From NCBI RefSeq assembly GCF_055900595.2, contig NZ_CM148325.1: 64,000 bases of DNA; one strand, written 5' to 3'. Position numbers: made by a program. Positions within the stretch are counted from its first letter, which is position 1, and each line of letters starts with the position of its first letter. Shown piece by piece: positions 37,801 to 40,800 of the stretch.

Positions 37801-40800
37801 CGCTCACTACGCGCGAAGTGGCTGAAACTATCAGCAACGGCGAAGCCGGATGCTTTATGCACGGGCCAACCTTTATGGGCAATCCGCTGGCCTGCGCGGC
37901 AGCAAACGCCAGCCTGGCCATTATCGAATCTGGCGACTGGCAGCAGCAGGTAGCGACTATTGAAGCACAACTGCGCGAGCAACTGGCTCCTGCCCGTGAC
38001 GCCGAAATGGTTGCCGATGTGCGCGTGCTGGGAGCGATTGGCGTGGTCGAAACCACTCGTCCGGTGAATATGGCTGCGCTGCAAAAATTCTTTGTCGAAC
38101 AGGGTGTCTGGATCCGACCTTTTGGCAAGCTGATTTACCTGATGCCACCCTATATCATTCACCCGCAACAGTTGCAGCGCCTGACCGCAGCGGTTAATTG
38201 CGCGGTGCAGGATGAAACATTTTTTTGCCAATAACGAGCAGTCAGCGTGAGGTTTTCTGGCTACACTTTCTGCAAACAAGAAAGGAGGGTTCATGAAACT
38301 CATTAGTAATGATCTGCGCGATGGCGATAAGCTGCCGCATCGCCATGTCTTTAACGGCATGGGTTACGATGGCGATAATATTTCGCCGCATCTGGCATGG
38401 GATGATGTTCCTGCGGGAACCAAAAGTTTTGTCGTCACCTGCTACGACCCGGATGCGCCAACTGGCTCTGGCTGGTGGCACTGGGTAGTTGTTAACTTAC
38501 CCGCTGATACCCGCGTATTACCGCAAGGGTTTGGCTCTGGTCTGGTAGCAATGCCAGACGGCGTTTTGCAGACGCGAACTGACTTTGGTAAAACCGGGTA
38601 CGATGGCGCAGCGCCGCCGAAGGGCGAAACTCATCGCTACATTTTTACCGTTCACGCGCTGGATGTAGAACGTATTGATGTCGATGAAGGTGCCAGTGGC
38701 GCGATGGTCGGGTTTAACGTCCATTTCCACTCTCTGGCAAGCGCCTCGATTACTGCGATGTTTAGTTAATTGCTCAACCAGATGGCGCAATGCTATCTGG
38801 TATCACTTAAAGGTATTAAAAACAACTTTTTGTCTTTTTACCTTCCCGTTTCGCTCAAGTTAGTATAAAAAAGCTGAACGTGAAACATTAAAAGCCATTA
38901 ATATCAATGCATTACAATATTTTTAGTCTAAAAAATAGACTACATAATGCTACAAAACACAACATACCCAGTCACTATGAATCAACCACTTAGATGGTAT
39001 TAGTGACCTGTAACAGAGCATTAGCGCAAGGTGACTTTTTGTCTTCTTGCGCTAATTTTTTGTCAAACACATTACGTCGTTTGCTGAATTTACAACCATG
39101 CTCAGTATCTCGATAAGCGCAGAGAAATGATGCAGTGGTGGGCGGATTGGCTTGATGAAAAGGTGTAGCAACCAACATTGCTATATCTCAGATAGCACAA
39201 AGCCTTGCAATCCAGTGCAAAGCTTTGTGTGTCTCAGTTTTGTCTCATCGGTAATTATGTGTTCGCTACGATGCAAGAATCCATACCAATAAGCATCCGA
39301 TAATTGGGAAAGAAAAATCCAACAAACTTCCCACATCCCACACGCGTGGATCAAAACCTCCCCACCACGGCATGTTGACACGTTTCCCTTTCCCAAACTT
39401 TTCTATCCAGCGATATTCTGCCTGGGTGTGTTCACGCGCAATGAAGAACGTACAACCGGCTATCGCACCGTAAGCCCAGTTTCCGGTAAAAATACCAACC
39501 AGTACCTGAGCCGCAAAAGCGCAAAGCGAGTGAAGAAATGGAGTGACATCAATGCTCTTAATCATGAAACTTCCCCATTGGTTGAAAATATGGCTCCTCC
39601 AACTCCAAGTGTATTTCGTGTTGTGCTCAACCTAAGAGGGCTGGAGTCAGAATTAGAATATCCTGTAGCAGAAATAAAAGATCCTCCACTAATAGTCAAC
39701 TGCGGAACATCGGCTATATCTGAATAAGTTCTGTCAGCAACAGTATTATTTATAGCCACATGTGATCCAAAAAAACTTCTTATTGTTTGGTTTTTAACTT
39801 TACTTCCTTCAATGGTTATCCTACTACCACAGTCAGCAATAAATCCTGAATCTGCATCCAGCGTTGCATTCATAAAAGAAGCTTCAGATCTCTCTACATC
39901 AATCCATCTAATATCTTTTGTGGGATTTGCACCAAATACATGACAAATATTAGAGTTAAACCTTACACCATCTTGGAGGTGCATTAATTTTTTTATATCT
40001 GTACCCCATAGCCTTGGAAAATTAACAGATGCTCCTGCATGGCAATCAAATCCCAGCTCAACCCCTGAGATATCTACAGCCTTTCCGGAAATAACAGCAC
40101 CAGTGTCTGCATTAACGGCTGTTCCACAATTGCGCATATCATTACCAGCAACATCAACACAACCCGCACCATCAATACGCACACCAAGTGCACATCCATA
40201 AAAACCTTTTTCAATATTTGGTTCAAGGACTTTACCACTTGTTTCTGCATCACTTTCTTCAACGTCATGTCGTCTTGCATCAACATATGCTGTATGAATG
40301 CACGTTAATCCACGATATGAGCAATGTATAGTTTTATGGTCGCGTATATTAACATTTGAACCATCTCTTACATTCCATCCTATATAACAATAGCTTGCAC
40401 TTGACCCCTGAAAATCTGCTTTAACATTATAAATACAATTAACTGACGCAACCGTACTCTCTGTGCACCGTTCAAACTTACTTACAGGCATTGATGCCTT
40501 GACATTATTTACCAGTTGCAGGGAAGAGTATCTGCTATAAGAAAAATCACATACGTAATACCCTTCTGGCATATATGCAGCAACACTTTCCTCATCAGGA
40601 GCACATCCGGTATGATATGCACTAATTTTTGCACCAAAACTACCATGAATTCCAACGTAGAACTTTCGAGCACCTGAATACGGATAGAAATTAAGTTCAG
40701 CTTTTTGAGTTACAATAAATGCACAAACATCGCTATCATCTCTATTTTCTTCAATCTGAATAGCAAATACAGGACTTTTTGCTGCATCGCAAATGTAAAA

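Follow-up and report, generated by a model that had tools for sequence, protein, structure and literature searches.

A lambda-type attR junction of a P22-like (Lederbergvirus) prophage at the classical ybhB/ybhC attachment site of E. coli

The junction at 38860-38874 of a 64,000-nucleotide stretch of contig NZ_CM148325.1 (assembly GCF_055900595.2), the whole of which is referred to here as the window, is almost certainly the attR (P-O-B', alias C-O-B') of a ~38.7-kb P22-like (Lederbergvirus) prophage inserted at the classical lambda attachment site, ybhB/ybhC, of E. coli. The sequence itself establishes the anatomy of the junction, an attL to match it, intact int and xis genes and an exact reconstruction of attB. 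Protein binding, excision competence and sib retroregulation would be expected from established lambda biology. The junction itself is an ordinary one of an already known kind; it shows nothing new and adds nothing to the understanding of site-specific recombination. Its main value is in annotation, with one prophage boundary fixed to the base, starting at the core, and with the element identified as a P22-like phage that uses the lambda integration module at the classical attB.

The center of the junction consists of the core and the overlap region within it.

38860-38874, minus strand: 15-bp common core O, GCTTTTTTATACTAA, shared without change by lambda, 434, JEP4, attB and attL
38863-38869, minus strand: 7-bp overlap region TTTATAC, taken to lie at this place inside the core; position derived from the core sequence

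The core, including the 7-bp overlap, is identical to that of lambda, aligning to the misc_recomb feature at 27724-27738 of NC_001416, and is present as a single copy in the window when up to 2 mismatches are allowed. An exact match to GCTTTTTTATACTAA was found in 0/100 shuffled sequences. The same holds for the 29-mer CGCTCAAGTTAGTATAAAAAAGCTGAACG, the junction string quoted in the initial annotation, which is matched exactly at 38852-38880 on the plus strand (0/100 shuffles). The 200 bp to the left of the core are identical to the unoccupied attB of E. coli Z0117EC0005 (200/200, compared to 49/200 for phage attP), and the 200 bp to the right match the attP of phage JEP4 at 187 positions, compared to 46/200 for attB. 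Homology changes partner exactly at the core, and the hybrid nature of the junction is real, far beyond chance. Considering that the left flank is identical to empty attB and that the right flank is a P arm, the junction is attR (P-O-B'), P-O-B' being attR in the standard nomenclature (PMC4880445, where the 7-bp overlap is described as well).

The left side of the junction is chromosomal.

36945-38234, plus strand: bioA, chromosomal gene on the bio side of attB; RefSeq annotation moved from the 100%-identical stretch of Z0117EC0005 (L005 15446-16735; offset +21499)
38293-38769, plus strand: ybhB (PEBP-family 'kinase inhibitor'), last chromosomal gene before the junction; a 158-aa ORF, annotated as ybhB in the identical L005 sequence and in EC332
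38770-38859, no strand: bacterial B' arm, intergenic DNA between ybhB and attB, matching the Z0117EC0005 empty site and K-12 attB
38856-38864, plus strand: predicted B' core-type Int-binding site CAAGTTAGT, from a motif scan with the core-type consensus CAACTTNNT, which we take to be that of the lambda literature

Strain Z0117EC0005 has an empty attB in the order ybhB-attB-ybhC, and its flank is 100% identical over 13.36 kb. The window is identical to it for 2007 bp leftwards from the core, and the last 100 bp of the B' arm match at 100/100; one flank of the junction is hence the B' arm of an unoccupied attB, as had been read from the sequence initially. The attR lysogen and this empty-site strain form a clean before/after pair for the lineage.

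The right flank is the P arm of an attP of the lambda/434 type, for which the closest phages are JEP4 and 434.

38868-38876, minus strand: predicted C core-type Int-binding site CAGCTTTTT of the phage half, from a motif scan
38902-38914, plus strand: predicted IHF site H2, TATCAATGCATTA, matching the IHF consensus WATCAANNNNTT and conserved in JEP4 and 434; the name H2 is our assumption from its position relative to lambda
38932-38946, minus strand: predicted Xis site X2, TATGTAGTCTATTTT, from a motif scan, overlapping the A-tract/Fis region, with one G>A change relative to lambda
38954-38966, minus strand: predicted Xis site X1, TATGTTGTGTTTT, identical to lambda in the alignment; we take the name to be that used in lambda attP
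38964-38983, plus strand: predicted Int arm-type site P2 (CAGTCACTAT at 38969-38978), aligning to the 'int 2' binding feature of NC_001416 at 27615-27634
38980-38992, plus strand: predicted IHF site H1, AATCAACCACTTA, an IHF consensus match with one N-position change relative to lambda
38996-39015, minus strand: predicted Int arm-type site P1 (ACAGGTCACTAATAC region), aligning to the 'int 1' feature of NC_001416 at 27583-27602, with 20/20 identity to lambda and 434
39013-39063, plus strand: tI terminator / sib hairpin followed by a T-run, from folding, with 49/50 identity to lambda and 434

All of P1, P2, H1, H2, X1 and X2 are thus recognizable in the P arm as conserved sequence, and the 10-bp motif of P2 is identical in all four sequences aligned. 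The P arm and tI together are closer to the 434 type (178/191) than to lambda (167/191). Divergence from lambda is seen in the core-proximal P arm, where the H2-to-X1 region is only 69/89 identical and matches instead the functional phages 434 and JEP4. The tI/sib region folds with -26.2 kcal/mol (z = -5.7; 0/200 shuffles as stable), and a 'terminator' is annotated at the corresponding position of 434. A simple terminator scan made no call at tI, presumably with its stem and loop rules unmet; the hairpin is clear from folding. The alignments to lambda attP and E. coli attB that had been suggested as a check gave the expected pattern, with the core, P1 and P2 matching lambda and B' matching the attB of K-12.

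The limits given initially for the junction need some adjustment. It had been placed at 38858-38874, of which the end and the core are right, and the start takes in the last 2 bp (AG) of B'. The term 'right prophage boundary' is appropriate on the conventional gal-attL...attR-bio map only; in the window, the junction is the low-coordinate end of the prophage. That it 'precisely marks' this boundary holds at the resolution of the 15 identical bp; the strands themselves are exchanged at the edges of the 7-bp overlap.

The prophage runs past base 64000, the end of the window, and attL, int and xis were seen only on the public contig DAZWYA010000005.1 (GCA_043978215.1). Over 51710-64000 and 38062-43119, the two stretches compared, this contig and the window agree in every base, and the coordinates of both stretches are consistent. 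In the window, searches with blastn-short, with blastn using the attL side of EC332 and with a scan allowing <=3 mismatches found only the attR core and chance matches of <=15 bp, and no second core, B arm, P' arm, ybhC, int or xis. Because the prophage extends beyond the window, this result was not taken as refutation. The attR predicted an attL 38.7 kb away, and the prediction was confirmed on the matching contig, where the second core that the initial annotation had called for lies 38,727 bp from the attR core (window-equivalent 77587-77601). This attL (B-O-P') adjoins xis, a lambda-type int and ybhC. Its P' arm is identical to lambda (200/200), and its B arm together with the beginning of ybhC agrees with the empty-site strain at 1525/1525 positions. 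When the bacterial halves of attR and attL are joined, the real empty attB is recovered at 135/135 positions; the reconstructed attP matches that of JEP4 at 208/215. The attL is thus reciprocal to attR, in direct orientation, and rebuilds both attB and attP.

The Int encoded on the contig has 356 aa, of which 353 are identical to lambda Int, and all of the substitutions are away from the catalytic residues R212, K235, H308, R311, H333 and Y342. An Exc/Xis gene is also present there, so that a cognate lambda-family Int with its catalytic tyrosine and a Xis are encoded beside attL. In the EC332 sister prophage, Xis is identical to lambda Xis at 71/72 positions.

The body of the element is that of a P22-like phage.

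38860-64000, no strand: part of the P22-like (Lederbergvirus) prophage in the window, with tailspike, Mnt/Arc, ejection proteins, head and packaging genes, lysis, Q and nin
39562-41619, minus strand: P22-type tailspike, first large prophage gene inside attR (Pfam Head_binding, E = 1.9e-65; annotated as tailspike in JEP4 and EC332)
39266-39565, minus strand: small hydrophobic ORF of 99 aa, overlapping the tailspike gene by 4 bp and lying immediately downstream of it, in a place typical of lysogenic-conversion morons

The prophage extends ~13.6 kb past the window to attL. P22-like phages have a virion module made up of a tailspike with an N-terminal head-binding domain, P22 portal, coat, scaffold and the gp7/gp20/gp16 ejection proteins, and the prophage agrees with this: its tailspike has the head-binding domain, and the annotations of the near-identical EC332 prophage and of DAZWYA010000005.1 include P22_portal, P22 capsid and DNA-transfer proteins. 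The best phage matches of the prophage are Lederbergvirus JEP4, E212 and CUS-3. The element is a Lederbergvirus akin to P22 that carries the int/att module of lambda, and not lambda itself. No Pfam family matched the 99-aa ORF, and no defence systems were found by PADLOC in the low-GC islets.

Comparison with known systems places the element more closely. The attR of lambda shares the 15-bp core, the 7-bp overlap, the B' arm and the ybhB/ybhC position with the present site, and P1, P2 and tI/sib are essentially identical, as are the P' arm and Int of the attL partner. In contrast to lambda, a siphovirus, the prophage body is that of a P22-like podovirus, and beyond tI the identity falls to 40/103, with an integrase fossil here that is unrelated to the lambda b region. 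The attP of 434 (M60848, OL657226) has the same core, the P arm and tI described above, 97/103 identity in the IntS-type fossil and a terminator at the matching position; 434 differs as a lambdoid siphovirus whose attP is unrecombined, with no hybrid junction. Lederbergvirus JEP4 (MT740315) is the best phage match, with 96.2% identity over 66% of 25 kb, and its attP supplies the right half of the junction from the first core base. It differs as a free phage isolate, the form in the window being the integrated one, and in having a different tailspike C-terminus and several different accessory genes. For another P22-like phage of the JEP4 clade, phiHS3, experiments have demonstrated lysogeny with integration upstream of ybhC (bioRxiv 10.64898/2026.05.19.726188).

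The prophage of EC332 (NZ_AP039429.1, 1,573,100-1,612,350) is practically identical and occupies the attachment site seen here, 39,205 bp separating its attL core from its attR core, with 100% identity over 8.3 kb beyond the window end. It differs in a replaced 1.6-kb segment of the nin region (60878-62484) and in the DUF551 region near xis, of which the EC332 variant is absent from the DAZWYA010000005.1 genome. To the right of the core there is 1 mismatch in 21,125 bp between EC332 and the window, compared to 77 differences in 1155 bp (6.7%) to the left, the last at 38794. A similar step is seen in two further contigs (L057, L058), with 43/798 differences left of the core versus 0/4260 right of it. 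Among 25 contigs read, the same tailspike adjoins ybhB in all four arrangements shown.

The formation of the junction can be described by the lambda scheme. In it, the circular genome of a phage with an attP of the lambda/434 type and an Int sharing 99% identity with that of lambda recombined with attB, the strands being exchanged in two staggered pairs at either edge of the TTTATAC overlap. The attP was thereby divided into attL (B-O-P'), beside int/xis and outside the window, and attR (P-O-B') at the present position. The attR retains the P-arm sites needed by the excisive complex, namely P2, X1, X2 with the Fis/A-tract region and H2, as well as P1 and H1, which would be used in integration. 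The tI/sib hairpin, just outside the P arm, lies downstream of int in the free phage, where it would down-regulate int, and is separated from int in the prophage. The Int-mediated site-specific integration proposed in the initial annotation is borne out by the core, B', P arm and attL, all of which were found.

Several other readings were weighed against integration of a mobile P22-like prophage. It is unlikely, given the following evidence, that the attR is genuine but belongs to a defective or cryptic prophage, as a relic with no part in excision. In its support, only 25 kb of the prophage lies within the window, and sister prophages show variation or pseudogenes among their accessory genes near xis: the DUF551 region, from the early-left operon to xis, varies among them and carries a pseudogene annotation in EC332, which leaves some doubt about the full viability of this prophage. 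Against the defective state, DAZWYA010000005.1 carries int, xis and both attachment sites in intact form, and the large morphogenesis ORFs in the window are all open and collinear with JEP4 and the complete EC332 prophage. Recent mobility is also indicated by the single mismatch to EC332 in 21 kb despite 6.7% divergent flanks, and by the shared ybhB-tailspike arrangement. Import of the whole lysogenic segment by homologous recombination (transduction or conjugation), rather than Int-mediated integration in the lineage, is very improbable. The same prophage does occur in other E. coli backgrounds, and the bio-ybh region is unusually divergent between lineages; however, the flanks are 100% identical to the same-lineage empty-site strain up to the core on both sides (for 2007 bp towards ybhB and for 1525 bp towards ybhC) and differ by 5-7% from the other lysogens examined, and crossovers would be needed within a few tens of bp beside each core.

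There is an exceedingly small chance that the element is phage lambda proper, or a construct made from it in the laboratory such as DE3, as the lambda-identical core and P' arm and the 99% identical Int might suggest. Such an element would have lambda structural genes and the b region beside the P arm. The genes inside attR are instead P22-type (Head_binding tailspike, P22 portal, coat and ejection proteins), and the P arm is of the 434/JEP4 type, followed by an integrase fossil missing in lambda; this gene content refutes the identity. The probability that an AT-rich sequence without any history of recombination came to resemble the lambda core by chance is negligible: nothing beyond the low complexity of the core speaks for it, and neither the core nor the 29-mer arose in the shuffles, with homology switching exactly at the core. 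A specialised-transduction-style co-transfer of the flanking alleles was also considered and rejected, since the same flanks are found in a strain that lacks the prophage, and the same prophage is found between flanks that diverge.

Beside the P arm of the preferred attR lies a remnant of another integrase gene.

39088-39168, plus strand: fossil 3' end (26 codons and a stop) of an IntS/P4-type integrase gene, with the translation IYNHAQYLDKRREMMQWWADWLDEKV followed by the stop

The peptide IYNHAQYLDKRREMMQWWADWLDEKV matches the C-terminal end of the integrases annotated in phages Dewey and IME10 at 26/26 residues, and is also encoded in unannotated DNA of HZ41. PGAP calls the EC332 equivalent a partial CDS missing its N-terminus. 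The fossil is present in JEP4 and 434 and absent from lambda. It may record a swap of the integration module and marks the outer limit of the lambda-type int/att cassette. We see an even chance that the fossil, just outside tI, marks a reusable recombination joint at which a P22-like ancestor exchanged its own integrase for the full lambda int-xis-attP-tI cassette and acquired the lambda attB as its target. If true, the int-xis-attP-tI cassette would move as a unit across virion types. The joint is common to the siphovirus 434 and to podoviruses, namely JEP4 and the present prophage.

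The 29-mer CGCTCAAGTTAGTATAAAAAAGCTGAACG, quoted in the initial annotation as part of a hybrid attR junction, occurs once in the window, at 38852-38880, and in none of 100 dinucleotide-preserving shuffles. It contains the lambda 15-bp core GCTTTTTTATACTAA (38860-38874, minus strand), the sole copy in the window even with two mismatches allowed. A chance resemblance to the core is excluded, both the 29-mer and the core having been tested against shuffles. The interval first assigned to the junction, 38858-38874, does hold the core; its start lies two bases inside the bacterial arm, a trivial offset. 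Several complete E. coli genomes match the chromosomal part, 25500-38859, at 100.0% identity over 13.36 kb, and in the two inspected, Z0117EC0005 and E200086, ybhC directly follows ybhB, leaving attB unoccupied. The best phage match for the DNA to the right of the core is Escherichia phage JEP4 (MT740315, Lederbergvirus), whose homology sets in precisely with the core's first base, as does the homology to attP of the lambdoid siphovirus 434. Flanks were compared over 200 bp on each side with all sequences anchored on the core, and in a three-way alignment. The left flank agrees with the empty attB at 200/200 positions and with JEP4 attP at 49/200, and the right flank at 46/200 and 187/200, respectively. 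Leftward of the core, the window follows the empty-site strain without a break for 2007 bp. The partner switches at the core, so that the proposed hybrid anatomy of bacterial B' arm, common core and phage P arm, in that order, is borne out. By the usual naming of such sites (PMC4880445), this order, C-O-B', makes the junction an attR. The crossover position is fixed only to within the core, which is also the precision with which the junction marks the prophage boundary; the boundary is a "right" one, as initially described, on the canonical lambda prophage map only, being the low-coordinate end in the window.

The boundary can also be seen by divergence from other lysogens. E. coli EC332 (NZ_AP039429.1) carries essentially the same element at the same site. 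The last difference from EC332 to the left of the core is at 38794, and 77 of 1155 positions differ there (6.7%), the diverged flank (37705-38794, bioA-ybhB) contrasting with the prophage (38875-60000), where a single position in 21,125 differs. On two more contigs with this tailspike, mismatches number 43/798 to the left of the core and 0/4260 to its right. The same phage therefore resides in diverged chromosomal backgrounds, and the identity break between chromosome and prophage, an independent boundary marker, falls at the core. It is noted that bioA-ybhB of the window is only 95.2% identical to K-12, a high divergence for E. coli core genes.

For placement of the recombination sites, the window was aligned with JEP4, 434 and lambda, and Int-binding features were carried over from the lambda annotation (NC_001416). 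The names and consensus sequences are those established in the lambda literature, and the assignments reflect sequence conservation only.

Predicted sites in and beside the core, by window coordinates
38856-38864, B' core-type half-site
38863-38869, 7-bp overlap, with C and B' on either side
38868-38876, C core-type half-site
38902-38914, H2, IHF site, matching the consensus
38932-38946, X2, Xis site, motif match
38954-38966, X1, Xis site, same as lambda
38964-38983, P2, Int arm-type site, motif CAGTCACTAT the same in all four sequences
38980-38992, H1, IHF site, matching the consensus
38996-39015, P1, Int arm-type site, 20/20 identical to lambda

With P1, P2 and the IHF and Xis motifs conserved, the prophage-side flank is a lambda-like P arm, as the initial annotation had it. 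The P arm together with tI matches JEP4 and 434 at 178/191 positions each and lambda at 167/191, the differences from lambda clustering in the core-proximal H2-X1 stretch (69/89 identical). Just outside P1, at 39013-39063, a T-run follows a strong hairpin, which folds at -26.2 kcal/mol (z = -5.7), is 49/50 identical to lambda and coincides with an annotated terminator in the 434 record; we identify this as tI/sib. It is downstream of int, across attP, as long as the phage is free, and in the prophage it is parted from int, which is the basis of int retroregulation in lambda. By analogy, int of the present prophage would be regulated in the same way. Here tI/sib faces the bioA-ybhB transcription unit, and read-through into the prophage may be stopped there.

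Directly beyond tI, an open frame of 26 codons (39088-39168, plus strand) encodes IYNHAQYLDKRREMMQWWADWLDEKV followed by a stop. This peptide agrees at 26/26 positions with the C-terminus of integrases annotated in Dewey and IME10, both P22-like phages, and equally with DNA in HZ41 that carries no annotation, and shares 96% identity with the C-termini of HK633 'IntS' and Kapi1. It looks like the fossil C-terminus of an IntS/P4-type integrase, present also in JEP4 and 434 but not in lambda. In the simplest reading, a lambda int-xis-attP-tI cassette would have displaced an IntS-type integrase save its last 26 codons, in the same orientation, giving the phage a new integration target; the fossil has the look of a scar from such an integration-module swap.

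Within the window, no second core, B arm, P' arm, ybhC, int or xis was found. This absence of attL does not refute the assignment, because the prophage is cut off on the right, within its nin region, where the window ends. Window 51710-64000 is matched at 100.000% identity by contig DAZWYA010000005.1 (GCA_043978215.1), and a second locus on this contig agrees exactly with the window at the coordinates predicted for it, 38062-43119. A third locus, overlapping perfectly over 4609 bp with the one that matches 51710-64000, holds xis and an int of 356 aa, the core for a second time, and after it ybhC. The matching attL core, proposed at the outset as the test of attR, is therefore found, at window-equivalent 77587-77601, 38,727 bp from attR. 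On its phage side (P' arm and int 3' end), attL agrees with lambda at 200/200 positions, and on its bacterial side with the empty-site strain at 1525/1525. When the parental sites were rebuilt from the halves of attR and attL, attB agreed with the real attB at 135/135 positions and attP with JEP4 attP at 208/215. Int on this contig is 353/356 identical to lambda Int, without substitution of catalytic residues; the EC332 prophage has 354/356 for Int and 71/72 for Xis.

The prophage inside attR is P22-like, not lambda. A tailspike of P22 type is encoded by its first large gene (39562-41619; Pfam Head_binding, E = 1.9e-65). Next come an Arc/Mnt repressor, ejection proteins, P22 coat, scaffold, portal and terminase, and after these the lysis, Q and nin genes. 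Among phages, JEP4 (96.2% over 66% of 25 kb), E212 and CUS-3 come closest. Lambda itself or a DE3-type construct is ruled out by the gene content and the 434-type P arm. The junction, at the classical site, is a member of the lambda/434 att family, every defining feature testable in sequence being found. Such a junction is already known: Lederbergviruses with a lambda-type module have been sequenced (JEP4) and studied (phiHS3), and experiments on phiHS3, a P22-like member of the JEP4 clade, showed lysogeny upstream of ybhC (bioRxiv 10.64898/2026.05.19.726188). The initial interpretation as an Int-integrated attR stands, corrected for the P22-like prophage, the meaning of "right" and the limits of the crossover.

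At the sequence level, attB and attP have given attL and attR, four sites with an identical 15-bp core, the cognate int/xis pair is intact and accessory-protein sites are conserved. On the lambda model (PMC4880445), integration would have been catalysed by Int together with IHF, the strands being exchanged in two staggered pairs at the borders of the 7-bp overlap. It is unlikely that homologous recombination brought in a segment that was already lysogenic: up to the cores themselves, the chromosome on both sides is identical to an empty-site strain of this lineage, and it is 5-7% off that of the other lysogens examined. Induction would lead Int, Xis, IHF and Fis to assemble on attR (P2, X1-X2/F, H2) and attL, and the genome would be excised. 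The prophage is probably inducible, since att sites, int and xis are intact, morphogenesis ORFs are open and divergence from the copies in other strains is near zero. It is possible that the prophage is defective, which would concern its present function alone and not the identity of the junction.

Other features of the prophage include a 99-aa hydrophobic ORF (39266-39565, minus strand) without a Pfam family, overlapping the tailspike stop codon by 4 bp and conserved in JEP4 and EC332; it lies between tailspike and attP, the usual place of lysogenic-conversion genes in P22-like phages. Adjoining the tailspike, an immI-like region has an intact 122-aa Arc+Mnt-type repressor ORF (41766-42134, plus strand), whereas the EC332 counterpart is annotated as a truncated pseudogene. 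Compared with the EC332 prophage, which is nearly identical elsewhere, 60878-62484 in the nin region is a 1.6-kb mosaic replacement (NinE, NinF, NinG, NinH, phosphatase), with about 98.5% identity to nin regions of unrelated lambdoid prophages.

Two low-GC islets (29-35%) lie among the core genes, at 3955-7956 and, between yvcK and uvrB, at 26064-30496. Each has one SopA-like protein (HECT-like E3 ligase, T3SS-effector-type), of 670 aa (3955-5967) and 422 aa (26064-27332), with 21% mutual identity, and a divergently oriented ORF of 550-561 aa without a Pfam family; PADLOC gave no hits on the islets. A pentapeptide-repeat protein (27395-28360) could be the split-off N-terminal part of the 422-aa protein. 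At 19407-21743 (minus strand), three Bax1-I/YccA-family membrane protein genes stand in a row, ybhL (21039-21743) and ORFs of 246 and 258 aa, the latter two in a lower-GC stretch (about 39-42%).
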